DNA from: Candidatus Xenobia bacterium
GTDB lineage: Bacteria; Vulcanimicrobiota; Xenobia; Xenobiales; QWHO01
Assembly (NCBI GenBank): GCA_045863235.1
Contig: BTUM01000023.1
Span: forward strand, 1 to 64,000
Direction: 5' to 3'
Length of the DNA stretch: 64,000 nucleotides
Shown here piece by piece: positions 2,270 to 17,717 of this stretch; the first letter of the stretch is position 1; every line of letters begins with the position of its first letter. The notes under the pieces are model-generated. The model worked only from the letters and a program-made list of their open reading frames with translations. It ran no database searches and was not told the DNA's origin. The position numbers and the translations under genes are program-made.

Positions 2270-4915
2270 GTGGCCACGATGGTCCGGCTTTCCTCGCTGC
2301 TGATCACTCTGGCCTGGTGGGGCTACCGGCGTAGCCGCCTGAGCCTGCTGGTTACAATCGTGATCCTGGCCTCGATCCTGGCCCTGCTGCCCACCCACCG
2401 GTGGGGCGCCCCCCTGAGCGACCTGCTCCCTCCCAGCGACCCCGACCGCATTCGCCTGGAAGAGCTTACCCGCCAGGTCGGCCCCTCGCAAGATCTGGTG
2501 GTGCTGGTGCGCGGGCTGGAAGCGGCCCAGCGCAAAGCTTACATCGACCGACTGGCGCGCCAGCTGCGCCAAGACCCCGAGCGCTACGACCTGGTGCTGG
2601 CCCGGCTCGATCTGGCCTTCTTGCGTCCCACCCTGCTCTACTATCTGGGCCTGACCGAGCTCACCGCCCTGGAGCAGGCCACTCGCAACCTGCGCCCCCT
2701 GGTGACCCATCCCGAGCAGGCCCTCGGCTCGGACGCGCCCCCAAATCCCAATCTCCTCAAGCTGGCCGGCCACTACCTTGGCCAGCTCGAGACCAGCCTC
2801 AAGACCCGCGGACGCTTTCAGTTCCAGTCGCCGATGTGGAGCTTCGCCGACCCGGGCCAGCTCGACCCCCGCGCCTTGCGCCTGTTCCAGGGCCAGCCGG
2901 TGCTGCACTACACCACCCTCGACAGGGGCGAGGTGCACGTGCTGCTGGTGCGTCCTGGCCGGTTGGGACAGGATACGGCTCTGCTCGGGTTGCGCTACGA
3001 GGCCAGCCGCATCGCTCGCCAGATCCCGGGCATCCGAGCCGACGTGACAGGCGTTGCGGCCCTTCTGCGCGAGCAGAGCCGGGGAATGCTGAGCGACCTG
3101 TCCCGGGCCGGAATGCTGGCTCTGGGTGCCCTGCTGGTTCTGTTCGGGCTGGTTTACCGCGATCTCTACCGCCCCCTGGTGGGGGGCTTCGCCAGCTTGC
3201 TGGGAGCGGTCTTCCTGTTCATGCTGCTGGCTCCCAATGCGATGCCGGCGGCCGTGGGCGGCCTGGTGGGCTGGCTGACGGGTCTCTGCTTTGCGCTGCG
3301 CCTGGCCTGCAGCTACTCCGAGCAGCGCCGCAAGGGGAGCTTCCCTCTCAACGCCTGGCGCACCGCCATGCTGGGCCCGGGGAAAGGCTACGTGGGTGCC
3401 GTCGTGACGCTGGGGACGGCCTTCCTTGCCCTGCTCCTGACCGGCTTCCCCGGCGCCATGGAGATCGGTCTGGGGGGCGCCATCGCTTTGCTCGGCTCGT
3501 TGTTGGGCACGCTGGTGCTGCTGCCAGGCTTCCTGGGCCTGTACGACCCGAATCCCACCAACCTTCCCGCCCTCACCGACGAGCGACTGCGCCGGGTCGT
3601 GCACCGGGTGCGCCGCCAGCGCCACGGCGCCACCCTGGCTGCCGGACTGCTCCTGAGCCTGGGAGCCCTGACCGCCCTGACCCAGGGCTCGACCTACCTC
3701 AACGACGATCCGGTGCTGGTGATCGACTCCAGCTTGCCGGCGGCGGCCTCGGTGCTGCAACTCGAGCGCAATGGCCACAGCTGCCTCCACGCCACCGTCC
3801 TGGCCCGCGATGCCGAGCACGCCCGCCAGATCAGCCAGGCCTTCAAGGCTCAGCCGCTGGTCGGCAGGGTGGACTCGCTGGCCAGCCTGCTGCCTCCCGA
3901 AGCCGAGGCCAAGGCCCCGCTGGTGGGCGCCATTCGCCAGAACGTGGCCGGTCTGAAGCTGCCCGCCCCGCGCTCGGAGTGGCCGGCCGAGCAGATGCTC
4001 GACCTGGCGGCGCTGGCTGCGAAGTTCGAAGCCCGGGTACGCCAGCTCTCTCCTCACAACCCCGAGCTGGCCGCCGACATCCTGACCCGCATGGCCGCCC
4101 TCAAAACGACCATTCCCAGGCTGGGCCCCGGTCCGCTGGAGGACGGGCTACTGGCTTTCGAGCAGGCCTGCCGGGCCGACCTCTCCAATCTTTTGACCTT
4201 GCTGAGCCGGCAGACCCCGGTGGCGCCCACGGCCCGCTCTCTCCCCAACGAGCTGCAGGTCCGCGGCATGAGTGAGGCCGGACAGCTGGTCGTGCGCATC
4301 TATCCCAGACAGGCCGGCTATGAGCCCGAAGATGCGGCCGCCTTCGTGGCCAGCCTGAAGTCGGTCGATCCCGAGGTCACCGGGCCGGCGGTGCTGCTGG
4401 CCCGGCTGGGCGAGCAGGCCCGGCGCGTCTCCTCCGCTGCGGCGGGCTTCGTCTGGCTGACCTTGCTGATGGTCCTCATCCTGCGGCTGAGGTCGTTCTG
4501 GAGCGCCCTCGTGGCCATGCTTCCCCCCACTCTGGCCTGGTTCTGGACGGCCGGGTTCCTGGCTCTGTGCCAGGTCCCGCTCAATCTGCTCACCTTCCTC
4601 TTTCCTCCCGTGCTGCTGGGCCTGGGAGCTACCCTGGCGGTGGAGAGCCAGCGTCGTCGCAGCGCCAGGGGAGGCCGCCCCCTGCTCATGGGGGTGCTGG
4701 CTGTGGCGCTGGTGGCGGGCAGCCTGGGCGTCTCGGCCAATCCGGCCCTGGCCAGCCTGGGCCTCGTCCTTTCGGTAAGTCTGCTGGCCAACTGGCTGGC
4801 TGCTGCCTCCCTGCCGCCCTCGCGGGCCCGCGCCCGCTCGCGCGTCAAGCTGGTCCACCGGGTCCGCCCGCCGCGGGTGGCCACTCTGCCTCAGTCCCTG
4901 TCAGCTCGAAGCTAG
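2270..4915 (+). CDS. MMPL/RND-family membrane transporter (HpnN-like architecture)
   Basis: Two TM clusters each after a large soluble loop; LSDLLP, ADVTGVAAL, VDPEVTGPAV, VPLNLLTF segments. Confidence 0.7.
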   Translation: MATMVRLSSLLITLAWWGYRRSRLSLLVTIVILASILALLPTHRWGAPLSDLLPPSDPDRIRLEELTRQVGPSQDLVVLVRGLEAAQRKAYIDRLARQLRQDPERYDLVLARLDLAFLRPTLLYYLGLTELTALEQATRNLRPLVTHPEQALGSDAPPNPNLLKLAGHYLGQLETSLKTRGRFQFQSPMWSFADPGQLDPRALRLFQGQPVLHYTTLDRGEVHVLLVRPGRLGQDTALLGLRYEASRIARQIPGIRADVTGVAALLREQSRGMLSDLSRAGMLALGALLVLFGLVYRDLYRPLVGGFASLLGAVFLFMLLAPNAMPAAVGGLVGWLTGLCFALRLACSYSEQRRKGSFPLNAWRTAMLGPGKGYVGAVVTLGTAFLALLLTGFPGAMEIGLGGAIALLGSLLGTLVLLPGFLGLYDPNPTNLPALTDERLRRVVHRVRRQRHGATLAAGLLLSLGALTALTQGSTYLNDDPVLVIDSSLPAAASVLQLERNGHSCLHATVLARDAEHARQISQAFKAQPLVGRVDSLASLLPPEAEAKAPLVGAIRQNVAGLKLPAPRSEWPAEQMLDLAALAAKFEARVRQLSPHNPELAADILTRMAALKTTIPRLGPGPLEDGLLAFEQACRADLSNLLTLLSRQTPVAPTARSLPNELQVRGMSEAGQLVVRIYPRQAGYEPEDAAAFVASLKSVDPEVTGPAVLLARLGEQARRVSSAAAGFVWLTLLMVLILRLRSFWSALVAMLPPTLAWFWTAGFLALCQVPLNLLTFLFPPVLLGLGATLAVESQRRRSARGGRPLLMGVLAVALVAGSLGVSANPALASLGLVLSVSLLANWLAAASLPPSRARARSRVKLVHRVRPPRVATLPQSLSARS

Positions 4916-5604
4916 CAGTACTCGATCCACGCGCCCTCGCTGTTGCGCAGCTCGTAGGGCTTGAAGTTGGCCTTGTAGTTCATGGAGGGACAGTCGCGCA
5001 CGAACAGTCCCAGGTAGAGGTGCTCGCGCCCGGTCTGACGGCAGAACTCCACTTCCTTGAGCAAGCTGAAAGCCCCCAGGCGCCGCTCCGGAAAGTCGAA
5101 GTGCCAGGCGAACATATAGCTGTAGGCTGACCTGGGGGTGGGGTCGAGCACCCCGAACCCGGCCATGCGCCCCTCCAACCAGTAGGTGAACATGGCCGAA
5201 AAGCCATAGTGGCACTCGAGCAGGAACTGGAAGTAGTTCTCGTTGGGGGGCTGCGAGTTCGGGAAGCGGCGCAGCATGAACTGCAGGTAGAGATCGTAAG
5301 CCTCTTTGGTGTAATGGGGAGGACCGATGCGCACTTCCACGTCCTGGTTGCGTTTCCAGACCTGGCGCTGGGTACGGCTGGGACGGTAGCGCAGCACATC
5401 CAGGCGGATGGGCACGCACTCGGTGCAACCCCGGCAACTGGGCACGTAGAGCGACTGCCCGAAGCGCTGGTAGCCCTGGTCAAAGAAGGGCTCGAGCTCC
5501 TCGGGGGCGATCTCCTCCACGTGCATGGCGGCCGAGTGCCACCACCGGTTGGCCAGGTAGGGGCACGAGCCGCAGTCCACCAGGTTGACGTCCGAGCGCT
5601 TCAC
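4912..5604 (-). CDS. ATE/Bpt-family aminoacyl-tRNA-protein transferase
   Basis: CPYL, GYQRFGQSLYVPSCRGCTECVPIR, LYLGLFVRDCPSMNYKANFKPYE; GTG start overlaps upstream TGA. Confidence 0.85.
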   Translation of the reverse strand: MKRSDVNLVDCGSCPYLANRWWHSAAMHVEEIAPEELEPFFDQGYQRFGQSLYVPSCRGCTECVPIRLDVLRYRPSRTQRQVWKRNQDVEVRIGPPHYTKEAYDLYLQFMLRRFPNSQPPNENYFQFLLECHYGFSAMFTYWLEGRMAGFGVLDPTPRSAYSYMFAWHFDFPERRLGAFSLLKEVEFCRQTGREHLYLGLFVRDCPSMNYKANFKPYELRNSEGAWIEYC

Positions 5605-6398
5605 CTGGCGACCCAGCGTCCCCCTTCGAGGCTGTATTCCTCGGTGTACTGCTCGTTGTCGGCGGGCGAGACCTGGCGCTTGACCTTCCAGGTGCCACCC
5701 TCGTTGACGAAGGTCCACTTCTCGTCGAACTTGTCGTCGCGGTCCAGGTCGAGCTTGGCCCGGTTGACGCCCTGGCCGGGGTTGTCTTGATACAAGTTGA
5801 CCTTGACCGAGCCGGACAGAGCGTCTTTCACCTTGTCGCCGGAGATCTTCTGGCCGGCCTTGTCGAGGATGGCCTGATCGAAGCTGCGCAAGGCTCCGGG
5901 CCCGGCCTGGGTGGCCGTGGCCACGGGGGCGCTTTCCCCCTCCTGCACCCAGCCGTCGTCGGTCAGGGTGAACTCCAGGTCGTAGGTCTTGTCATCGTCG
6001 GAGGAGGAAACCTGGCGCTTGACCGCGCCGTCCTTGTGGGTCCACTTCTCATCCCACTTGTCGTCGCGGTCCAGGTCGAGCTTGGCCCGATTGATGCCGA
6101 CCTTCTTGTCGTCTTGATACAGGTTGACCTTGACGTCCCCGGGAAAGGCGTCTTGCAGCTTGGAGTCATCGATCTGCTGGCCCATCTTGCCGATGATCTT
6201 CGAGTGCAGCGGCGTGAGCGCGTTGCCCACCGGGGCGCTGGTGGAGGTGGCGCTGACCTGGCTGACCTCGGTTTGAGCCGGGGGGACGGAGTCGGGGGTG
6301 CGACTGGCGGTGAGCATGCGCACGCACCCGTAGCAGGCCCCGCCCAGCAACAGGATGCCGCCCGCGATCACGATCCGCATGAAGGTCTTGAATTTCAT
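5601..6398 (-). CDS. membrane-anchored protein with a tandemly duplicated domain
   Basis: N-terminal hydrophobic segment; two copies of VKVNLYQD..G.NRAKLDLDRDDK[WF]DEKWT..VKRQVS. Confidence 0.8.
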   Translation of the reverse strand: MKFKTFMRIVIAGGILLLGGACYGCVRMLTASRTPDSVPPAQTEVSQVSATSTSAPVGNALTPLHSKIIGKMGQQIDDSKLQDAFPGDVKVNLYQDDKKVGINRAKLDLDRDDKWDEKWTHKDGAVKRQVSSSDDDKTYDLEFTLTDDGWVQEGESAPVATATQAGPGALRSFDQAILDKAGQKISGDKVKDALSGSVKVNLYQDNPGQGVNRAKLDLDRDDKFDEKWTFVNEGGTWKVKRQVSPADNEQYTEEYSLEGGRWVAR

Positions 6399-7303
6399 CC
6401 GCCCACCTCACTTGTCATGACTTCACTGCGCGCTTCGCTTGCGCGTGGCATCATCCCCCGGTCGATCGGCACGGTGCAGTTGCAGTAGGCATATCGACAG
6501 GGAGCGGGATGCTCGGCCAGCTCAAAGCTCTCCTCGAGAAAGCTGCCCATCCTCTCGAGCTTGTAGCGCCGGGCCGGGTAGCAGCGAAAGGCCTGGCCCT
6601 GGTCGTCTAAAATGAAGTAGCGGCTGCCCGACCAGCAGGGCCGTCCCTGAAAGTCGAAGGCCAGCTCGCCGGTCAGATTGTGGCCGCCCAGCTTGAGGAT
6701 CTGCTCACGCTCGTGGGGCTCGTAAGCGATCAGGTCGCGGTTCTGCTTCTCGGGCTGGACTTTGAAGGTCAACCCGGCCTGGCGAAAGCGCAGCGCCAGG
6801 CCCTCGAGCTGGCCGAGCCGCTCGCGGGTGGCCACGCTGGTGACGCACAGGTGGGGCCGGGGCAGAGACGGATCGGCCCGCTGCGCCATCAGGTCGGAAA
6901 GCCACAGGGCCTTGTCCAGGAACTCGCCCAGCTCGCTCACATACTCAAGGTGCAGGCTGCACGAGAAGATCCCCAGCCGGCCGCGGCAAGCCTCCACGAA
7001 CTCGGAGAGCCGGGCTCGCGAGGCCGAGAAGTTGGTCACCACCGAGATGCGGTGCCCCAACCCCGCCAGGCCCTCCACAATTTCGTTCAGGGTGGGGTGA
7101 ACGAAGGGCTCGCCGCCCGAGAGCTTGATCTCCCAGCGCCCCGGCAGGCGGGCGAAGGCGGCCAGGAAGCGGGGCGTGTCGCGGCTCCAGCGGCCGCGGT
7201 CCTCCTTGAAGCGCTGGGTGCAGTAGCTGCAGCGGTAGTTGCAGGCGGTGTTGATGTTCCAGCTGATCACCCCCTCGGCGGGGCGCGGCGTGGCCGTCAT
7301 CAC
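6395..7303 (-). CDS. radical SAM protein with Cys-rich C-terminus (twitch/SPASM-like)
   Basis: CNYRCSYC, SGGEPF; C-terminal CWSG..FRC..PCRYAYCNC. Confidence 0.9.
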   Translation of the reverse strand: MMTATPRPAEGVISWNINTACNYRCSYCTQRFKEDRGRWSRDTPRFLAAFARLPGRWEIKLSGGEPFVHPTLNEIVEGLAGLGHRISVVTNFSASRARLSEFVEACRGRLGIFSCSLHLEYVSELGEFLDKALWLSDLMAQRADPSLPRPHLCVTSVATRERLGQLEGLALRFRQAGLTFKVQPEKQNRDLIAYEPHEREQILKLGGHNLTGELAFDFQGRPCWSGSRYFILDDQGQAFRCYPARRYKLERMGSFLEESFELAEHPAPCRYAYCNCTVPIDRGMMPRASEARSEVMTSEVGG

Positions 7304-8154
7304 TCCGGTACCCCTTCGATCATGCCCCGGTTGGCCGGCGTGGTGCAGGGGCAGATGTCGTAGGGGCAGGGAAGGGCAGCCGTCTTGCGCTGCACGGTGC
7401 CGGCCAGCACATTGCCGAGATACCCCTCCTGGTAGCGGCGCGCGGTGCGGCAGCTGAAGGCGTCGCCGTTCTGGAGCACCACGAAGTAGTCGGCCCCCGC
7501 CCAGCAGCGCTTGCCACGGTAGCTGGGGGCCAGATTGGCTTTCGTGGGGTCGGGCAAAAAGCCCAGCAGTGCTTCGACGGCAGTGGTCTCCTCAGGAGAG
7601 TATTCGACCTTGCCTTGGCCTACCTTCATCCACTGGGGAAAAAACTTGAGCCCGTGCTCCTCCACCACCTGGCGGGCCTGGCTGACCGCATCCATTCGGC
7701 CCGGCACCAGCACGGAGTTGACCACCAGCCGGGCCTGGGGATCCATCCACTGGCGAAGCTGCCAGGCTTTGGCGGCGAATTCCTCGGCGCTGGTGTGCTC
7801 CAGGTGCAGACTGGCGCTGACGATCCCCAGCCGGCCTCGGGTGAGCTGCGCGAAGCGCTCCAGAATGCCCAGCGGGGCCGACAGGTTGGTCAGGGTCGAG
7901 ATGCGGTGGGGCGTGCGCTCCACCAGTCCCGGGATGATCCGCTCCATGTAGCCCTTGAAGGCAAACGGCTCCCCCCCGGTCATCTTGATCTCCCAGACCC
8001 CCGGCAGCTCCTGGAAGAACTGCAGGAAGCGCTCCACCTCCTCGGGGGAGGGGTGCCCCACGCGGTGTTTCTTCTTCTGGATGCAGTAGCTGCAGTCATA
8101 GTTGCACACGCCGCACACCTGCCACTCGATGGTGCTCTGGCGCTTCAGCGGCAT
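7300..8154 (-). CDS. radical SAM protein with Cys-rich C-terminus (paralog of 6395..7303)
   Basis: CNYDCSYC, TGGEPF; CWAG..FSC..PCPYDICPC; ATG at 8154 after GGAGG. Confidence 0.9.
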   Translation of the reverse strand: MPLKRQSTIEWQVCGVCNYDCSYCIQKKKHRVGHPSPEEVERFLQFFQELPGVWEIKMTGGEPFAFKGYMERIIPGLVERTPHRISTLTNLSAPLGILERFAQLTRGRLGIVSASLHLEHTSAEEFAAKAWQLRQWMDPQARLVVNSVLVPGRMDAVSQARQVVEEHGLKFFPQWMKVGQGKVEYSPEETTAVEALLGFLPDPTKANLAPSYRGKRCWAGADYFVVLQNGDAFSCRTARRYQEGYLGNVLAGTVQRKTAALPCPYDICPCTTPANRGMIEGVPE

Positions 8155-9206
8155 CCGGTCACCTCCCGGCGGCGCTCCTCGCCGTAGGCGCGGGCAAAGC
8201 GGGCGGCCAGCTTGACGTTCTGGTTGAGCTTGCCGCACTGCTGGCAACCGGAGAAATACTCCCCCCGGCGCAGGCGCGAGCGCAGGGCGTTCCACTCGGG
8301 GCCGTTCCAGAGCTCGGAAAAGCGCCCCAGCTTGCCCACCCGGACCTCGACGTTGCAGCAGTAAAGCACGGTGCCGTCCACCAGCACCCGCGAGTAATAG
8401 TGGCCCATGTAGCAGCCGATGCGGGCGATGTCGGCGGTGCGCTCTCCGCCGGCGGCCAACTGGCCCGCGAAGACCTCCAGGTTGGTGTCCACCCCCAGCT
8501 CACGAGCCCGCTCCACCGCCCGCGGCACCAGCTCGGCCAGAAGCGAGCGCTGCGAGTCGGTGACGCGGACCGCCTCGGTGCCGTCTTTCAGGCTGGCCAG
8601 CTTGAAGTTGACCGAGTGGGCCCGGGTACGGTGGGCCAGCTCCACCATCTCCACCAGCTCATGGGCGTTGTGCCGGCAGATGACCTGCACCTGCTTGTAG
8701 CGGCGTCCCGCTTCGGCAAAGCGCTCCAGCATGGCCAGCAGGCGCTCCCACTCGTCGGTCTGGAAGCTGGGGTGGAAGGCCTGGTAGCTCTCCTTGCTGG
8801 CCCCCTGCACCCCGATCAGGAGCTGATCCACCCCCAGCTCGAGGATGCGCTCGGGGTCGGCGGCGATCAGGTTGGTGATGATGGTCAGGTGCAGCCCGCG
8901 AGCCTTGACGGCCGCGATCATCTGGTGGATGTCGGGATGGGTGAAGGGCTCGCCCATGCCGCTCAGGATGACGGCTTTCAGCCCGCCCAGGCTCCGGATG
9001 TCGTCGAGCAGCTCGATCAGGGCCCCGGCCTCGACCCGGTTGCGCTTCCAGGCGGCGCTGCGCGTTTTGCGCAGGTGGGGGGAGTGGTCCCAGCAGGTCA
9101 CACAGTTCGTGTTGCAGCCGTTGGTGACGTCCAGGTGGACCGACTCGGGCCCGATCAGCACCCGGTCTTCCTGCAGACCCTGCAAGCGCAGGTCTAGGCC
9201 GGGCAT
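8145..9206 (-). CDS. radical SAM/SPASM-twitch protein
   Basis: CNTNCVTC, SGMGEPF; CYMG..DGTVLYCC..FSELWNG..CQQC; ATG at 9206. Confidence 0.9.
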   Translation of the reverse strand: MPGLDLRLQGLQEDRVLIGPESVHLDVTNGCNTNCVTCWDHSPHLRKTRSAAWKRNRVEAGALIELLDDIRSLGGLKAVILSGMGEPFTHPDIHQMIAAVKARGLHLTIITNLIAADPERILELGVDQLLIGVQGASKESYQAFHPSFQTDEWERLLAMLERFAEAGRRYKQVQVICRHNAHELVEMVELAHRTRAHSVNFKLASLKDGTEAVRVTDSQRSLLAELVPRAVERARELGVDTNLEVFAGQLAAGGERTADIARIGCYMGHYYSRVLVDGTVLYCCNVEVRVGKLGRFSELWNGPEWNALRSRLRRGEYFSGCQQCGKLNQNVKLAARFARAYGEERRREVTGCR

Positions 9207-10828
9207 GCGGTCTCTTGAGCCCGGCGCAACACCTCCGCGTTGCCGGCCAGCTTGGATTGGGCCGAGCCTACCTCCTGGGCTTCGGAGATGCGGGCCACCA
9301 CCTGGTAGAGATCCTGACCCCGCGCGCGAGCGCTGCTCAGGCAATCGGCCAGGCGCTCGGCCAGCTCCTCGGCCCGCAGCTCACGCTCCGCGCCCAGCAC
9401 CCGCACCAGGGTGGCGGCCGCGTTCCAGTTGTCGAAGGCGGCCAGCTCCGGCAGGATGCGCTTGAGGGCGCGGGCGCGCTCGCTGCCGGTGGCCCGCTCG
9501 AGCTTGCGGCAGAAGGCCTGGGCCAGGCGCAAACCGGCCTCGGTGGGCAGGTGGTGGCGCTGCATCAGCTCGAGCAGGCTGCAGGCGGGACGCGCCAGCT
9601 TGGCTTCGCTCTCGCCCAGGGCGTGCACCAGCCGGGCCACGTCGTCGAGCTCCAGCCCGCGCCTGGTGGCGCGCTGCAGCAGGCTGTCGGTGAGAGCGTC
9701 CTCGGCCGCCTCGACCCGGCGCGGGGGCAGCACCAGCTTGAGCAGGGCCGCGGCCATGTCCCGGGCGTGATTGCGCGGCACCAGGTGGCGGGCCGCCAGC
9801 GAGGCCCGCTGGCGTTTCTCGGGGTCAAGATAGGGCTCCAGGGCGTCTTGCAGGGCGGCCGGGGTCAGGTCGGCCAGCAGGCTGCCGGCCCCCGCCTCCA
9901 CCGCCCGACGGGCTCGCTCCGCCTGCTGATCGGCGATCTTGGGCTGGGGCAGAAACACGGCCGGCAGGCCGGCCAGCCACAGCTCGGCGCAGGTGTTGTA
10001 GCCTGCGGCCGTGAGGGCCAGGTCGCAGCCGGGCAGGTAGACCGCGCTGCCCCAGTCGCGCAGCCAGGTGACGTGGGAAGCGTGGATGCTGCGCCCGCGA
10101 TAGAGCGGACCGGCCGCCACCACCAGGTGAAAGCGGGGATAGCTCGCCAGCTCGTCGCAAAGCCAGGTCAGGGTGGCCTCGGCCTGCTCGTCCCCGCCGC
10201 CCCCGGCCGAGCAGTAGAGAGCCAGCTTGCCCTCGGGGATGCCCAGCCTCTGGCGCGCCTGCTCGCGGGGCAGCATTTCGTGGGGCTCGCGCACCGCCAC
10301 CGGACCGAAGAAGCGCGTCCGGCTCTTGACGCCCTCGGGCAGGGGTAGCTTCGTGCCCGGCGGCTCGGGCACCAGGATGGCGTCATAGAGCGGCAGCATG
10401 GCCGCAAAATCAGGCTTCTGGGCGAACTCCGGTTTGACCGGCCGGTAGATGAAGGCCCGCTGGCGGCAAAGGTCCAGGGCCGAGAGCAGCTCGCCGAAGG
10501 AGCCCCGGGGGAAGGTGTCCACCACCAGCAGATCGGGGCGGATCAAGCCCAGCGAATGCCACACCCACTGCTTGGCCAGGGCCAGGTAGGTCAGCTTGTC
10601 GATGCCGGTCTCGCCCACCACGGTCTTGGAGGGCAGCTTGAAGCTGGCGAACCTCTCCTGGAACAACAGCCCGTCCGCTTCGCTGGAGGTCAGGAAGTAG
10701 ATCTCGGCCCGGGCTCCGGAGAAGGCGGCGTAGCGGCGCACCCAGCGGTTGACGGCCACCAGCCGGGCCAGGTGGCCCACTCCCGCCCCGTTGACGGCGT
10801 AGTTGACGATGCGCAGGGTGTGGGACAT
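9194..10828 (-). CDS. GT-B glycosyltransferase (MurG/GT28/SpsG-like) with helical C-terminal extension
   Basis: NGAGVGHLAR, DLLVVDTFPRG, SAGGGG, AAGYNT, DQQAERA motifs. Confidence 0.8.
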   Translation of the reverse strand: MSHTLRIVNYAVNGAGVGHLARLVAVNRWVRRYAAFSGARAEIYFLTSSEADGLLFQERFASFKLPSKTVVGETGIDKLTYLALAKQWVWHSLGLIRPDLLVVDTFPRGSFGELLSALDLCRQRAFIYRPVKPEFAQKPDFAAMLPLYDAILVPEPPGTKLPLPEGVKSRTRFFGPVAVREPHEMLPREQARQRLGIPEGKLALYCSAGGGGDEQAEATLTWLCDELASYPRFHLVVAAGPLYRGRSIHASHVTWLRDWGSAVYLPGCDLALTAAGYNTCAELWLAGLPAVFLPQPKIADQQAERARRAVEAGAGSLLADLTPAALQDALEPYLDPEKRQRASLAARHLVPRNHARDMAAALLKLVLPPRRVEAAEDALTDSLLQRATRRGLELDDVARLVHALGESEAKLARPACSLLELMQRHHLPTEAGLRLAQAFCRKLERATGSERARALKRILPELAAFDNWNAAATLVRVLGAERELRAEELAERLADCLSSARARGQDLYQVVARISEAQEVGSAQSKLAGNAEVLRRAQETACPA

Positions 10829-12117
10829 CAGGACGCGTCGTAGTAGCTGGTCGAGCTGCTGGAGCTGACGCTGGCCGCCGCCGCCTCCGAGTCGTCGCGT
10901 CGCCGGCGTTCGTAGCGGTAGCCGGGATGGCGCTGGTAGTACTGCTGCACCTCAGGCATGAAATTTCCGTCGATCTGGCCGTCGGTGACCAGATCCCACC
11001 ACAGGAAGTTCTCGGCCAGGCTGCCCCGGTCGTAGTCGTCGAAGACGTAGATGGTCTCCACCGTGTTGCCGTAGCGGTCGAGCCGCTTTCGGACCTTTTC
11101 GCGCCGGTGGGCAAAACGACTCTGGAAGGCGGCCTCGGGAAAGCGCACGTAGGCGTTCTTGGGGCGGCTGTATTTCCAGTAGTCTTTCTGGAGCTTCTCC
11201 TTCTCCTTGTTCAGGTCGTTGAGCAGGGCCGTGAGCACCAGCTCGTTGGCGCGCTCGAGGTAGCGCACCTGCTCTTGCAGACCGGCCCAGCGCTTGGCCA
11301 TGGTCTCCAGCTCGGGATGGCGCTCGAGCCGCGTGGCCAGGGCCCCTTCGGGGCAGTCGGCCAGGAACTGGCCCAGGCTCTTGCGGGCCTCGTCCAGGTG
11401 CAGGGCCTCCAGGTTGGCCAGGCGGTAGGTGGCGTCGTTGTACTCGGTCTCCAGCTTGACTCCGGCATCCCATTCGCGCTGCAGCTCCTGCAGGCGCGGG
11501 TCGAGGTCGGCCAGGGCCCGAGAGTTCTCCAGATACTCCTCGCGCAGCTCCTTGAAGGACTTCTTGTCGGGGAAGAGCTCCATCACCTCGTCGCCGGCCT
11601 TCCAGTCGAGGTAGTAGGAGACCCGCCAGAAGCCCACCTTGTAGTCGGAGGTGCCGTAGCCCACCTCGATGAGGTGCTCGAAGCGCTTGTTGGTGCGGCA
11701 CTTCTCCACCAGCGGAGAGAGGGCCTTGCGATGCTCGTTGATACGCTGCATGGCCAGGGTCAGCTCGCCCGAGTCGGGGTGGCGTAGCCGCTCGCGATCC
11801 AGGAAGCGGTCGTCGGCTTCGATCTGGGCGACTCGTTCCTGCAATTTCCGCCGATCCTGGTGCATGGCCTCGATCAAACCGGCATTGAGGGGTTGAAAGC
11901 CCGTGATGGCGCGGGCCCGATCCAGCGCCTCGGGGGTGAAGGCGGTCAGGATCGTGCTCACCAGCTCCTTTTCGGCCTGGTCGCGCCGAGCCGTCAGATC
12001 GGTCTTGCGCTCGAAGTGCTGGCGGGCTTTCTGCTGCACCTCCAGCAGCTCTTGCTCGATCTCGGCGTTGCGCTGCTGGGCGGCCCGCTGGAAATCGGCG
12101 ACGGAGTAGGTGCTCAT
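10828..12117 (-). CDS. coiled-coil hypothetical protein
   Basis: Charged heptad-rich sequence; overlaps both neighbours; strong codon bias. Confidence 0.8.
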   Translation of the reverse strand: MSTYSVADFQRAAQQRNAEIEQELLEVQQKARQHFERKTDLTARRDQAEKELVSTILTAFTPEALDRARAITGFQPLNAGLIEAMHQDRRKLQERVAQIEADDRFLDRERLRHPDSGELTLAMQRINEHRKALSPLVEKCRTNKRFEHLIEVGYGTSDYKVGFWRVSYYLDWKAGDEVMELFPDKKSFKELREEYLENSRALADLDPRLQELQREWDAGVKLETEYNDATYRLANLEALHLDEARKSLGQFLADCPEGALATRLERHPELETMAKRWAGLQEQVRYLERANELVLTALLNDLNKEKEKLQKDYWKYSRPKNAYVRFPEAAFQSRFAHRREKVRKRLDRYGNTVETIYVFDDYDRGSLAENFLWWDLVTDGQIDGNFMPEVQQYYQRHPGYRYERRRRDDSEAAAASVSSSSSTSYYDAS

Positions 12118-12443
12118 CGGCGCTTGCCGACCTCCTCCAGAAAGCGCCTGGCGGCCAGCTCGAGATCGGCCTCATCGGGAGCGTCCACCTCGTCCACGAG
12201 CAGCACGAAGGCCTGGCCGCTCTCGGCCTGCTCCTCCAGGGCGGCCACCACATCGGCGGACAACTCCGCACGGTCGCCGGCGGCTGAGGTCAAGAACTCG
12301 TAGCCCACCCGGCGCGCCGGGTCGAACCCGTCCAGCCGGATGATCCTGCCGGCCACCTCATAGGGGTGATTCTCGGCGATCTGGTAGCCGGCGCTCTCGA
12401 AGTGCCGCTTGAGGAGGGCGCTGCCTTTTTGCTCGTCCAACAT
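12114..12443 (-). CDS. small hypothetical protein, possible restriction-endonuclease-like fold
   Basis: ATG at 12443; IRLDGFDPARRVGYEF resembles a PD-(D/E)XK/Vsr-like core. Confidence 0.55.
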   Translation of the reverse strand: MLDEQKGSALLKRHFESAGYQIAENHPYEVAGRIIRLDGFDPARRVGYEFLTSAAGDRAELSADVVAALEEQAESGQAFVLLVDEVDAPDEADLELAARRFLEEVGKRR

Positions 12444-12481
12444 CGGACGAACGGCCTTCGAGGGGGGCGGGGGAGGGCCCT

Positions 12482-12763
12482 TTAGGAGCGCGGCGGGAAA
12501 CCCCTTTACACGGTTTTTCGGCTGCGCGACGCCCGACATATTGTGCTAGAAGTCCGGGCGCCTGCAACATCTTGTGGTGGCGGAGGCGGGGGTAGGGGCC
12601 CCCGAGAGCGTAGCTCCTCTCGACACCGCATCGGGTTTGCGTCCGGACTTCTAGGAGCGCAGCCGGAAACCCCCTTGACACAGTTTTCCGGCTGCGCGAC
12701 GCCCAACATATTGTGCTAGAAGTCCGGCCGCCTACCACATGGGGGTTGCGGCCGGACTTCTAG
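12482..12763. repeat. composite palindromic repeat (REP/BIME-like): two ~80-bp direct copies with CTAGAAGTCCGG/CCGGACTTCTAG inverted repeats
   Basis: Direct copies start ~12482 and ~12651; IR pairs 12546-12557/12643-12654 and 12716-12731/12748-12763. Confidence 0.85.
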
Positions 12764-13392
12764 CCGCCCGAGGCCAGACCCGACTGCAGCGCCTGGGACG
12801 CCTTGAGCAGCTCGGTGGTCGACAACCCGTGCTTCTTGGCAAAGTCGGCGATCTTGCGGGCCGTCCGGATCTGCTCGGTGGTGGACTTGCCAGGAGGCCC
12901 CGCCAGCCTGCGCTCGGGCTCGAGCGCGAGCGTTTGAGCCAGCCCGTCCTTGAGCATGGGGCCATAGAGCTTGAGCAGGTCGGCTCCGGGGGTCTCCTTG
13001 CCCTGGAACAGCTTCTGCAGGGGCACGAAGGCCTTCCGCATCCGCTCCGGGTTGGGGGCGTGGGACACCTCGTTGATGCCCACCGCGAACTCCACCATCA
13101 GGTTCAGCACCTGGTCGGCCTTCAGCTGGTAGCGCGGGCTGAGGGCGGTGATGTCATCGAGCACCTGACCCACCGGAGCGGGCAATTGCTCACCCGGGCC
13201 CAGCACCCTGGTCTTGTAGGGCTCGAGCGCCACAAAGGCCTTCTCGGCCTTGTTGGTCAGCGCATCCCGGTCGGCCTGGCTCAGGCCCAGAGTGGCCGCC
13301 TGGGCGGCGATGCGGTCGGTCGCCTCCTCGGCGCGGGCACCGAGCATGAGACCAAAAAGGAGAATGAGTGCAATGGCAGATCGGATAACCAT
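12760..13392 (-). CDS. secreted hypothetical protein
   Basis: Signal-peptide-like MVIRSAIALILLFGLMLGARA. Confidence 0.7.
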   Translation of the reverse strand: MVIRSAIALILLFGLMLGARAEEATDRIAAQAATLGLSQADRDALTNKAEKAFVALEPYKTRVLGPGEQLPAPVGQVLDDITALSPRYQLKADQVLNLMVEFAVGINEVSHAPNPERMRKAFVPLQKLFQGKETPGADLLKLYGPMLKDGLAQTLALEPERRLAGPPGKSTTEQIRTARKIADFAKKHGLSTTELLKASQALQSGLASGG

Positions 13393-13437
13393 AGTCAAAT
13401 CAGGTTAGCTCTCGGAAGGCGAATCCCTGCCCCTGCG

Positions 13438-15765
13438 CTACCAGAGCCCGGCCCGGCGCCCCTGGTCGAAGGCCATCGGGGCTCCGGGCGCGAGCGCAAA
13501 AGCGGCCGCGAAGGCGGGCATGTTGCGGGCTGCGTTGTTGACCCGGAACTCGTTGGCCGGGTGCTGAGAGTCCGGGTCACGCTCGCGCAGCGAGCCGTCG
13601 CGACGGGACATGCTGGTGGCGAAGTTCAGGAAGAAGCGCTGCTCGGGTGTGAGTCCCTCTTTCAGGGTGCGGTCCTGGTTGCGCTGCAAGAAGGCCTCGT
13701 AGGCCACCGACAGGCCGGTCAGGTCGGCCGAGGACTCGTTGAGGAACGAGGCGCGGTTGCGCTCGCCGAAGGCCGGTTCGAACTGGAGCAGCTGGCGCTC
13801 GACGCCCTGCAGCTTCATCTCGAATACCTGGCGGTCCTGAGGGGGCAGCCAGTCGCGCTGGGCGCCGCTGCCGTCGTGGCGGGTGCCAGAGTTCTCGAAG
13901 CCATGGCCCACTTCGTGTCCCATGGTATAGCCGAGCACCCCGTAGAGCTCGGCCGGCTCGGGGGACCCATCCAGCCGGGGGTCGAGCAGGTAGGCGCCGG
14001 TCACGACGACCGCGTTGGTCTTGGGCATGTGGTAGGCGTTCACCAGGTCGGTGCGCCCCCAGCCATACAGAGAAGGGTCGCAATTGAAGACTTTGCTCGC
14101 GTGCAGGCCCTTGATCCGCATCACGTTCTCGAGATGGCGGTCGGGCTGGATCGCGACCGCCAGGGGCTCGAAGCCTGCTGAGGGAGCCCCCACCTCCAAT
14201 CGCATGCTCTCCAGCTTGTCCAGCGCCGCCTGGCGGGCTTCCGGGGTATACCAGGTGGCGTTGCGAATGCGCTCTCGGAAGACGTTGCGCACGTCATCGA
14301 AGACCTGCTCGGCCAGCTTGCGCTTCTCGGGAGTCACCGCCTTCTCGGCGAAGCGCTGCTGCAGCAGGGTCTGGAGATAGCCTTTCGTCTGGCTTTCGGC
14401 CGACTGGTCAAAGTAGAGCTGCAGGCGCCGATTGGACCTGTCGTGCGCCTCGCTGAGCTCGGAAGTGAGGTCGGAAGCCAGGTTGCTGACCACCGAGTAG
14501 CGCAGGAACTGCTTGAGGTCTTCCAGCGGCAGCTGGCGCAGCCGCTCGGAGAGCGATTCGAGGTGCCGGGGAGCGGTCATCAGCACGTCCGTGGGAGTCT
14601 GGTAGGCCGACCAGCCCAGCTGCGGATCGAGCTCCTGCACCCTCTGGAGGCGCACGTCGTGGCTGCGCGTATTGGGGTCGTACTGGAAGGTGCAGTCGGC
14701 CCCGGCCAGTTGGAAGGCCGCCTGGGAGGCGCGCTGGGCGTTCTTGGCGGCCGTCTCGGGCGAGTCGCCGGCTGCCTCGAGCAGCCCGGCGGCGTAGCTT
14801 GCGAACTTGCGGTCGTGGATGGCCCGGTTGAGATCGCTGCCCGGGCGGTCGCGGTTGGGCATCAGGCTGAAGCGGAGCGAGCCGTCTTGCATGGGGTAGA
14901 GGTCGGGCGTGAGCAGGGTGGGGATGCCCTGCCGGTGGAGCATGGATAGGACCGGGCCCAGCTGGCTGTGGTCCTGCATGGCTTCGACCTGCTCGAGCAG
15001 CGGCCTGACCTGGCTGAGGCCGAGCTGGTCGCGCAGCTTCAGGTCGGAGGCCGCCCGGTGGAAGTCTTGCACTTTCTGCTCGGGACTGCCCGGCCGGGGC
15101 TTGGGAGCTGTGAGCATCTCGCTGAAAACAGCGTCGGAGAGCGCTCGAGCCTGCTTGCTGCTGACTTCGTAGCGGTGACCTTCGCTAAAGCCGAGCAGGC
15201 TGCGCCAGAACCTGTTGACCCGACCGTTGGCGTACTCGAAGAAGTTGTGGCCAGGATCCTCTTTGCCCAGCTTCTGGCGCACGGCCGGGCCGGGCTCCTC
15301 GCGAGCCGGCACCATGGAGAGCAGGCTGGTCTGATAAGACTGCGCCGCCAGCGGGTCCTCCAGCGTCACCAACCGCAGCACGTTGCCGGCCGGCTGGCTC
15401 TGAGGCTCGCTGAGGCCGGCGATGGCACTCAGGTAGAGGTGGCCCACCTCGGCCCGGGGCTTGAGGTCGCTCTGGGCCTGCATGGCTTTCACCGCCACCT
15501 CGGCCAGGGCCACCGAGAGAGGACCGCTCACCCCCTGGCTGATGGCCTGCAGGGTGGCGCTCCGGGCAGCCCGGGCCGCCAAGGTCTGGCTGTTGGGGAG
15601 GGCCAGGGCCACCCTGGCCAGCACCTGCTGCTTGGGAGCGCCTCCGGAGGCCAGGCTCTGCAGTTGAGCCACATCCTCGGGCAGCACCGTGGGCGTCGGA
15701 GGCGCTGCCAGCCGGGGTGGAGAGGGAGATTTTCCAACCGGATCAGGGCCCAGGGGGGTCAGCAC
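13438..15765 (-). CDS. M13 (neprilysin/PepO) family metallopeptidase with N-terminal extension
   Basis: VNAYH, GHEVGHGF (HExxH), NESSADLTG, HPANEFRVN. Confidence 0.85.
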   Translation of the reverse strand: MLTPLGPDPVGKSPSPPRLAAPPTPTVLPEDVAQLQSLASGGAPKQQVLARVALALPNSQTLAARAARSATLQAISQGVSGPLSVALAEVAVKAMQAQSDLKPRAEVGHLYLSAIAGLSEPQSQPAGNVLRLVTLEDPLAAQSYQTSLLSMVPAREEPGPAVRQKLGKEDPGHNFFEYANGRVNRFWRSLLGFSEGHRYEVSSKQARALSDAVFSEMLTAPKPRPGSPEQKVQDFHRAASDLKLRDQLGLSQVRPLLEQVEAMQDHSQLGPVLSMLHRQGIPTLLTPDLYPMQDGSLRFSLMPNRDRPGSDLNRAIHDRKFASYAAGLLEAAGDSPETAAKNAQRASQAAFQLAGADCTFQYDPNTRSHDVRLQRVQELDPQLGWSAYQTPTDVLMTAPRHLESLSERLRQLPLEDLKQFLRYSVVSNLASDLTSELSEAHDRSNRRLQLYFDQSAESQTKGYLQTLLQQRFAEKAVTPEKRKLAEQVFDDVRNVFRERIRNATWYTPEARQAALDKLESMRLEVGAPSAGFEPLAVAIQPDRHLENVMRIKGLHASKVFNCDPSLYGWGRTDLVNAYHMPKTNAVVVTGAYLLDPRLDGSPEPAELYGVLGYTMGHEVGHGFENSGTRHDGSGAQRDWLPPQDRQVFEMKLQGVERQLLQFEPAFGERNRASFLNESSADLTGLSVAYEAFLQRNQDRTLKEGLTPEQRFFLNFATSMSRRDGSLRERDPDSQHPANEFRVNNAARNMPAFAAAFALAPGAPMAFDQGRRAGLW

Positions 15766-17460: not shown

Positions 17461-17717
17461 CCCCGTCGCTCGCCGTTCATTTTTCGGAAAGAATTCGGCA
17501 ATCGAGCGTTCACCAACCGGAAGCACCCGGTTCACATGCGTGCCGTAGGCTTGGAGTATCGCCCTCCCGGCGTTACCGTTCTCACCGGGCGGTATACCGC
17601 CTGCTCAGCCCGGTAACGCTCCCAGGCCGGTAAGCGCGCGGGGCCGGTCGGCCGGCTCCACCACGGTCAGCCCGGTGACAGCAGGATGAACCTGGCGCCG
17701 GCCCAGAAAGCTGGGCG

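Follow-up and report, generated by a model that had tools for sequence, protein, structure and literature searches.

The window analysed here, a 64,000-nucleotide stretch of contig BTUM01000023.1 from a Candidatus Xenobia bacterium, harbors a cassette of seven minus-strand genes (g1 to g7) that travel as one block, among which g2, g7 and usually g3 constitute the core. The products of g2, g3 and g7 are an elongated helical protein, a GT-B glycosyltransferase (GT) and a protein with a membrane helix, respectively, while g4 to g6 encode radical S-adenosylmethionine (SAM) enzymes. The almost invariant C-terminal serine of g2 is linked to the presence of a glycosyltransferase, and a reading that we favour with modest confidence is that g3 glycosylates this serine and that the radical SAM enzymes tailor the sugar.

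Among the 116 g2 homologs that could be read to a stop codon, 112 end in D-x-S, two in E-x-S, one in R-S-S and one in E-E-A. After de-duplication on the last 12 residues, 97 of 98 tails end in Ser, 96 of them as D/E-x-S, and the linker ahead of this terminal motif is free in both length and sequence. The distinct tails of the other cassette proteins, taken as controls, end in Ser far less often (g1, 8/66; g3, 15/76; g4, 6/60; g5, 4/53; g6, 9/43; g7, 1/57), and of the 3318 genes in the host baseline 312 (9%) end in Ser and 27 (0.8%) in D/E-x-S. Since the terminal Ser of the g2 homologs is written with six codons, TCN and AGY alike, and the gap between g2 and g3 varies from -4 to +751 nt, the tail is not an artefact of gene overlap. 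No g3-linked homolog ends in Ala or Thr, and both exceptions to the motif come from loci without g3, namely L099, in which a substitute enzyme is present and Ser is kept with the acidic residue lost, and L155, in which no GT is adjacent and the protein ends in E-E-A. The latter, a 6-kb metagenome contig, groups with four g3-linked, Ser-ending homologs in a FastTree clade with a support of 100. Moreover, the Ser tail is retained in reduced forms (g2-g3-g7 and TerB-like-g3-g2) that have no radical SAM gene in the locus, which argues that the tail is read by the GT rather than by the radical SAM enzymes.

The association was also examined from the side of g3, an anchoring that removes the bias of selecting on g2. 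Thirty-five non-self genomes with a g3 match at E<1e-40 were taken, of which 34 had readable neighbours and at least five also belong to the g2-anchored set. A Ser-ending gene adjoins g3 in 34/34 cases, comprising 23 g2 genes ending in D-x-S, ten g2 genes ending in Y-x-S and one gene for an unrelated protein ending in D-V-S. The last lies in locus L292 (5106-11810; G1106), where an orphan 196-aa protein with this ending is followed by a g3-like GT, a 1235-aa GT-B/GT4/radical SAM-SPASM fusion and another radical SAM enzyme. This locus may be a second system that relies on the same tag; its acceptor candidate was detected in 1 of 201 genomes of its order. Separately, in loci L037-L156, 7 of 43 distinct tails of g6 homologs end in D/E-x-S, as against the 0.8% host baseline, and these tails may represent a single clade.

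The annotated features of the system are as follows.

12114..12443, minus strand: g1, 109 aa, predicted Vsr/DUF559-like (PD-(D/E)xK-type) fold; accessory, missing from reduced forms
10828..12117, minus strand: g2, 429 aa, orphan elongated helical (coiled-coil) protein; proposed acceptor; core gene
11590..11661, minus strand: conserved aromatic loop of g2, residues ~153-176, between long helices
10831..10839, minus strand: C-terminal tag of g2, D427-A428-S429-COOH, the end of a disordered acidic tail; proposed modification site
9194..10828, minus strand: g3, 544 aa, GT-B glycosyltransferase with a MurG/GT1-like donor domain and a helical C-terminal extension
8145..9206, minus strand: g4, 353 aa, radical SAM enzyme bearing a twitch domain
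7300..8154, minus strand: g5, 284 aa, radical SAM enzyme of an unnamed family
6395..7303, minus strand: g6, 302 aa, radical SAM enzyme, paralog of g5
5601..6398, minus strand: g7, 265 aa, N-terminal membrane helix, Pro/Thr/Ala-rich linker and two orphan ~95-aa beta domains; core gene
4912..5604, minus strand: g8, 230 aa, ATE/Bpt aminoacyl-tRNA-protein transferase, overlapping g7; outside the conserved cassette

The first-pass annotation had described these eight genes as joined by seven overlaps, and this layout is borne out: all eight minus-strand frames are open, with a GC content at third codon positions of 0.88-0.92, and from g1 to g8 all seven junctions overlap, by 4, 1, 13, 10, 4, 4 and 4 bp. 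Candidate starts further upstream than those used exist for g1, g4, g5 and g8; the chosen starts of g1, g4 and g5 are backed by homolog alignments, and that of g8 is based on its overlap with g7 and on the beginning of ATE_N at residue 13. In homologous loci the median gaps across the six g1-g7 junctions range from -4 to +6 nt, with script-picked starts that may favour tight gaps. Co-transcription of the eight genes is likely. On the contigs of four RNA-labelled runs, 23-30 of 30 bins were covered at a flat low depth that was the same on the flanks as on the operon, and because coverage is equally low on both, these reads demonstrate neither expression nor co-transcription. The promoter scan gave no sigma-70-like promoter, terminator-like sites occurred at chance level (6 vs 4.9), and an Rfam scan of positions 4000-14000 returned no match.

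The alignment search with g2 yielded 63 genome loci and 57 metagenome loci, of which 42 and 15, respectively, were well flanked (700 nt or more upstream of g2 and 7,500 nt or more downstream); one metagenome locus was excluded because its g2 did not reach the threshold. Genes g1 to g7 occur in the order of the window in 29 of the 42 well-flanked genome loci, and the others comprise one locus without g1, five with g2-g3-g7-g4, one rearranged g2-g3-g7-g4, five with g2-g3-g7 and one with g2-g7, so that g2 and g7 are present in 42/42 and g3 in 41/42. The 15 metagenome loci include ten full cassettes, two without g1 and three shorter forms. According to the titles of the genome records, the carriers belong to Myxococcota, Acidobacteriota, Planctomycetota, Spirochaetota, Ozemobacteraceae, Armatimonadota, Kapabacteria-type Bacteroidota and Actinomycetes, together with one Saccharibacteria-labelled genome, and one g2 homolog is recorded under the name Polyangium aurulentum. 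The spread is patchy. Within the host phylum, 6 of 401 genomes, G000 among them, gave a strong g3 match (E<1e-40), the unpublished genomes of this set counting only toward the denominator; for two other phyla, with centre genomes counted, the figures were 24 of 351 and 6 of 301. The expectation of a conserved pathway, for which a gene-neighbourhood search had been proposed as the check, has thus held up, inasmuch as the homologs are not scattered and the g1-g7 order is kept across phyla.

To judge from these loci, the radical SAM genes and g1 appear to be dispensable add-ons to a g2-GT-g7 core. A genome-wide search for g4 found none in four of the five genomes having the g2-g3-g7 form, and a search for g5/g6, run with no positive control and on genomes of unstated completeness, found none in the five genomes with g2-g3-g7-g4. 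A distant form consisting of a TerB-like gene, g3 and g2 was seen in four loci (L034, L035, L290 and L291), and no g7 was found in the two genomes of this form that were searched. Two Patescibacteria-type genomes of ~1 Mb carry an operon of PspA, a weakly GT2-like protein, a g2-like protein and a g7-like protein (L099 7814-11424; L256, G538:C8). Their g2 copies are 33% identical, and the substitute enzyme matches GT2 weakly (E 0.011), its second copy having no Pfam match. Within that class g2-like proteins occur in just 2 of 146 genomes, the g7-like query hit its own genome only among 401 genomes of its phylum, and the protein database held no more relatives of this g2. The genes that recur on the flanks encode lineage-specific kinases and housekeeping enzymes (30 proteins scanned), and among viral contigs there was no g2 relative in 28 pattern matches, the radical SAM matches being remote (20-33% identity). 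In L086, L088 and L142, a 90-aa gene and a weak PIN-domain gene, resembling a toxin-antitoxin pair, are inserted between g2 and g3. In the same-genus genome G054 (97% complete), g1 and the start of g2 stand at a contig end (L165 4243-4708; G054:C162) and no g3 or g7 ortholog was found; the cassette there is either unassembled or decayed.

The seven-gene system is apparently undescribed, as it matches no curated family model beyond generic domains. In Pfam, g4-g6 each carry a radical SAM domain, g4 also has SPASM/twitch, g3 has GT28_C and g8 has ATE_N/ATE_C; no family exceeds its cut-off on g1, g2 or g7. Among the eight proteins g8 alone passes a curated NCBIfam cut-off, and no curated NCBIfam or PADLOC model names g1-g7. 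These domains, together with the resemblance of g1 to DUF559/Vsr-like models and the two-domain repeat of g7, agree with the labels first assigned to the genes. In the literature searched, from which supplements and most subscription papers fell outside coverage, no description of the cassette was found.

The proposed acceptor g2 has a predicted model (mean predicted local distance difference test score, pLDDT, 91.9) of long helices, the aromatic loop and a disordered tail (residues 413-429, pLDDT <50), with no membrane helix predicted. It is slowly changing and colinear across homologs rather than hypervariable. In the model, the aromatic loop is a possible membrane- or partner-contacting tip. 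Foldseek returned no match at E up to 0.001, the best fold comparison (Z 8.7, root-mean-square deviation 5.1, 153 aligned residues) lies inside the helical-bundle background, PspA of Pfam weakly matches 1 of 44 members (E 0.0035), and the Atlas search gave unnamed clusters only. As for g7, one N-terminal hydrophobic helix precedes two domains that are 51% identical over 96 aa, and homologs carry one to three copies of this orphan ~95-aa domain. The hydrophobicity threshold is reached by 48 of 68 homologs, with some start picks truncated. Fold searches with g7 gave nothing above background (best Z 6.0), including a comparison of its domain with the add-on domain of GtfA/GtfB/TarM (Z 5.1-5.5, below significance). 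Such background-level results for g2 and g7 do not establish new folds.

The glycosyltransferase assignment of g3 draws on its GT28_C domain (PF04101, 30.5 bits vs 22) and on invariant donor-site motifs (G-x-G-x-G-H19, G276-x-N278, E282, D300-x-Q302), which place it among GT28/GT1-like GT-B enzymes, and its profile matches MurG and UDP-glycosyltransferases at E ~2e-9. Identity with MurG was rejected (TIGR01133, 35.6 bits vs a cut-off of 250). The acceptor half retains the invariant basic residues R22, K64 and R129. The protein is mostly 530-580 aa long where g5/g6 are present and mostly 420-500 aa where they are missing, the C-terminal extension being longer in the former.

Among the radical SAM enzymes, g4 contains the invariant SAM-cluster cysteines C31/35/38 and the equally invariant auxiliary cysteines C265, C283, C284, C321 and C324, which, with a PF13186 score of 30.1 bits vs 21.5, assign it to the SPASM/twitch class. 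Against solved structures its profile hits PqqE on top (E 4e-10) and BlsE, with the twitch region aligning to BtrN (E 5e-8). The paralogs g5 and g6, which are 37% identical, share CxxxCxxC and five invariant C-terminal cysteines (in g5, C17/21/24 and Cys 217, 235, 263, 268 and 270) and have no SPASM Pfam match. They are paired in full-length loci and fused in one (L153). Their family numbers 260 representatives at E up to 1e-30. A domain scan of 26 of the 150 relatives listed, picked mainly for length, revealed five GT2 fusions (three of them also with GT28_C), one TagF-like fusion and three B12-binding fusions, and the g3 profile matches the GT28 parts of the three GT28_C-fused proteins. Giant enzymes joining a g5/g6-type radical SAM domain with GT28, GT2 or B12-binding radical SAM domains were noted as P0070, P0073, P0075, P0081, P0084 and P0104. 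The earlier statement that no named pathway (Moa, Pqq, Nir/Ahb, Que) has this gene set also stands, every equivalog model scoring below its cut-off. Identity with PqqE or MftC was rejected for g4 (45.8 vs 381 and 41.3 vs 265 bits), as were viperin (NF038283; 30.7, 30.4 and 48.7 bits for g4, g5 and g6 vs 180), the STM4011 radical SAM cluster (NF038073; 58.0 bits for g5 and 44.4 for g6 vs 200) and Moa, Nir/Ahb, Que and the tungsten-cofactor maturase (at best 85.4 bits vs 380 for TIGR04317, the other listed models being far below). PADLOC gave partial viperin-type matches confined to the radical SAM cores.

The small protein g1 resembles Vsr/DUF559-like folds among Atlas models (template modelling (TM) score 0.59-0.63 over 94-101 residues, with predicted models on both sides) and has invariant acidic residues D38, E49, D57 and D84, with no conserved Lys or His after D38/E49. 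On this modelled fold, no full catalytic set is obvious. Across 48 members there was no Pfam nuclease match save one DUF4365 at E 0.21, and PqqD matches 2 of 48 homologs, at E 0.05 only. Neither g1 nor g7 obtained a useful match in profile searches of solved sequences.

The eighth gene does not belong to the conserved unit. An ATE/Bpt identity for g8 is well founded (NF002346, 174.6 bits vs a cut-off of 170, with ATE_N and ATE_C present). However, of the 66 loci with 1 kb or more of downstream sequence, just three have an ATE/Bpt gene after g7, in each case from close kin and at least 92% identical to the g8 of the window, which indicates a local passenger. The host carries a second ATE gene elsewhere (45% identical to g8), and in G068 the cassette is present with the ATE genes on other contigs. 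An eight-gene system including ATE/Bpt was therefore rejected, and the first-pass annotation's eight-gene unit contracts to g1-g7. Its suggestion of a radical-modified, possibly aminoacylated glycoconjugate fares likewise: the radical-modified part agrees with the reading favoured here, whereas the aminoacylated part loses its basis with g8.

The chemistry on the g2 tail that we infer would proceed as follows. Initially, g3 would recognise the flexible D/E/Y-x-S-COOH tail of g2 and move a sugar from a housekeeping nucleoside diphosphate (NDP)-sugar onto Ser429, through either the side-chain hydroxyl or the terminal carboxylate. The twitch enzyme g4, plus the g5/g6 pair in the full form, would rework this sugar by radical chemistry (oxidation, epimerisation, deoxygenation or a C-C change), before or after the transfer. 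Because there is no peptidase or exporter in the cassette, the mark would probably stay on full-length g2. In the third and weakest step, modified g2 would be a cytoplasmic rod acting at the membrane together with g7, which is anchored there and probably faces outward. The envelope role is a weak guess prompted by the PspA or TerB-like neighbours, the aromatic loop of g2 and the anchoring of g7.

Several points weigh against this proposal, the support for which is genomic. The kin are not independent, which leaves as informative contrasts a single loss (L155), a single replacement and an unrelated acceptor that was not found in the 200 other genomes of its order. The two Patescibacteria-type g2 proteins keep the terminal Ser without g3, beside an enzyme that is just weakly GT2-like. 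The cassette encodes no sugar-nucleotide synthesis, and the best solved matches of g4-g6 are weak and mixed (PqqE, BlsE, BtrN and viperins). Finally, the envelope role draws on PspA in two genomes and a TerB-like gene in four loci, and single queries for PspA and the TerB-like protein matched nothing in the host or close to the full cassette. A wider version of the proposal, put forward tentatively, holds that D/E/Y-x-S-COOH would be a portable three-residue tag read by a new GT-B family on different acceptors, the protein-borne glycan being remodelled in place by zero, one or three radical SAM enzymes within an unrecognised envelope system of a g2 rod and a g7 anchor.

It is unlikely, although less so than the remaining alternatives, that g3 and the radical SAM enzymes make a small-molecule or lipid-linked glycoside, or that g3 is a GT-B-fold NDP-sugar hydrolase such as PseG, with the D-x-S tail serving as a docking tag on a g2 scaffold. 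The fusions of g5/g6-family enzymes to GT2, GT28 and TagF-like domains typical of glycan synthesis would suit such a role, as would the small-molecule UDP-glycosyltransferases (YjiC and OleI-type) among the closest solved GTs of g3, and the longer g3 extension seen with g5/g6 is consistent with a multi-enzyme assembly. However, tails ending in Ala or Thr are lacking among g3-linked homologs, which suits a reactive hydroxyl or carboxylate more than it does a docking motif, and the tag is retained in loci without a radical SAM gene.

A pathway resembling those of mycofactocin and PQQ, in which the terminal residues of g2 would be acted on by the radical SAM enzymes and the product glycosylated by g3, with release of a small cofactor, appears quite improbable. 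The fixed C-terminal motif on a co-encoded protein and the rank of PqqE among the solved matches of g4 recall such pathways. Nevertheless, the tail persists in forms without radical SAM genes, the PqqE and MftC models remain far under cut-off on g4, and the cassette has no conserved peptidase, short precursor, or RiPP recognition element (RRE; RiPP, ribosomally synthesised and post-translationally modified peptide) of the PqqD type, open reading frames below 70 aa in homologous loci lying outside that search.

We see a slim chance that g2 is a membrane-inserting Trojan-horse toxin whose C-terminal Ser bears an uptake tag, with g7 as immunity or display partner. Its long helical rod with an aromatic loop and the patchy spread across phyla would fit, and microcin E492 is modified at its C-terminal serine, as PMC7680869 describes. 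Yet an exporter and a signal peptide are missing, g2 is not hypervariable, and the likeness of its fold to the pore former XaxB falls short of significance (E 0.02, TM 0.14). Equally doubtful is an antiphage module, in which viperin-like g5/g6 would make a modified nucleotide and g1 cut nucleic acid: weak viperin matches of g5/g6 (PADLOC pVip up to 54.6 bits; solved viperins E ~1e-7) and the fold of g1 speak for it, but those matches are limited to the generic N-terminal part with NCBIfam viperin at most 48.7 bits vs 180, g1, g5 and g6 are the very genes that can be dispensed with, PADLOC gives nothing for g1, g2, g3 and g7, and the flanking genes are kinases and housekeeping enzymes, so that the stress or defence reading raised at first is weak.

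Modification of a C-terminal serine itself has precedents. For the lasso peptides pseudomycoidin and paeninodin (PsmK/PsmN, PadeK), PMC6993621 describes a co-encoded ribosomal product that receives its modification at the C-terminal serine and ends in hexose(s), which g2 would resemble; in that case phosphorylation of a short peptide comes first, and a nucleotidyltransferase-like enzyme is required. By contrast, the cassette has a proposed 429-aa substrate, a GT-B enzyme and three radical SAM enzymes, and no kinase, cyclase or RRE. Siderophore microcins (MccE492, MceC/D/I/J; PMC7680869) likewise combine attachment at a C-terminal Ser with a glycosyltransferase in the cluster, MceC glycosylating enterobactin and MceIJ ligating it. 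Here MceIJ, an exporter and a leader are absent, and no siderophore link was seen. A C-terminal-Ser-modified RiPP of the lasso or class IIb microcin kind was rejected, there being no leader precursor, cyclase/kinase, MceIJ or exporter among the conserved genes.

The dedicated GT-B enzymes GtfA/GtfB, EarP and TibC are encoded beside a single protein acceptor and modify internal residues. The cassette shares with them a GT-B gene beside its proposed acceptor; to our knowledge, they have no radical SAM partners. Mycobacteriophage virion glycosylation reportedly targets phage structural proteins (Freeman et al. 2023), whereas no g2 relative occurs in the viral contigs examined, and we know of no radical SAM tailoring in that system. 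BtrN and BlsE act on free small molecules in antibiotic pathways. The former is a twitch radical SAM dehydrogenase according to PMC10337720. The likeness of g4 to them lies in its SAM cluster and a four-Cys-capable twitch region aligning to BtrN, but the similarity is remote (BlsE model, 30.4 bits vs 400). Phage shock protein (PSP) envelope-stress operons come to mind since PspA heads the two Patescibacteria-type variants; they differ in that no PspA match lies near the full cassette, and the main text of the PSP survey PMC11237479 has 0 occurrences of 'radical' and 'glycosyl'.

Just upstream of g1, two 77-nt direct copies with internal inverted arms (12494-12570 and 12664-12740; element ~12482-12769) form a repeat that resembles repetitive extragenic palindromic (REP) or miniature inverted-repeat transposable (MITE) elements and may sit in the promoter region of the cassette. 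It is dispersed in the host (46 blastn matches spread over 37 contigs, with 32 matches reaching 60 nt or more), is missing at this site in G046 and G106, and has no Rfam match. At ~17557-17654 there is another short dispersed repeat family, which has many copies in genomes of the same genus. An 881-aa MMPL-family protein (2270-4915, plus strand) is convergent with g8, their stop codons overlapping, and adjoins it only in same-genus genomes, while an orphan protein of ~207 aa whose N-terminus has a hydrophobic stretch (12760-13398, minus strand) and an M13 peptidase (13438-15765, minus strand) precede the cassette only in close kin.

The proposal assigns a concrete, testable substrate, one residue ending a co-encoded protein, to a GT family and to three radical SAM enzymes yet to be characterised, and the natural reduced forms with zero, one or three radical SAM enzymes offer a ready stepwise series. 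If true, it would represent a new post-translational modification across Myxococcota, Acidobacteriota, Planctomycetota, Spirochaetota, Armatimonadota and others, would extend radical chemistry to a glycan borne by a full-size protein, and would supply a short C-terminal tag with which proteins could be glycosylated site-specifically.

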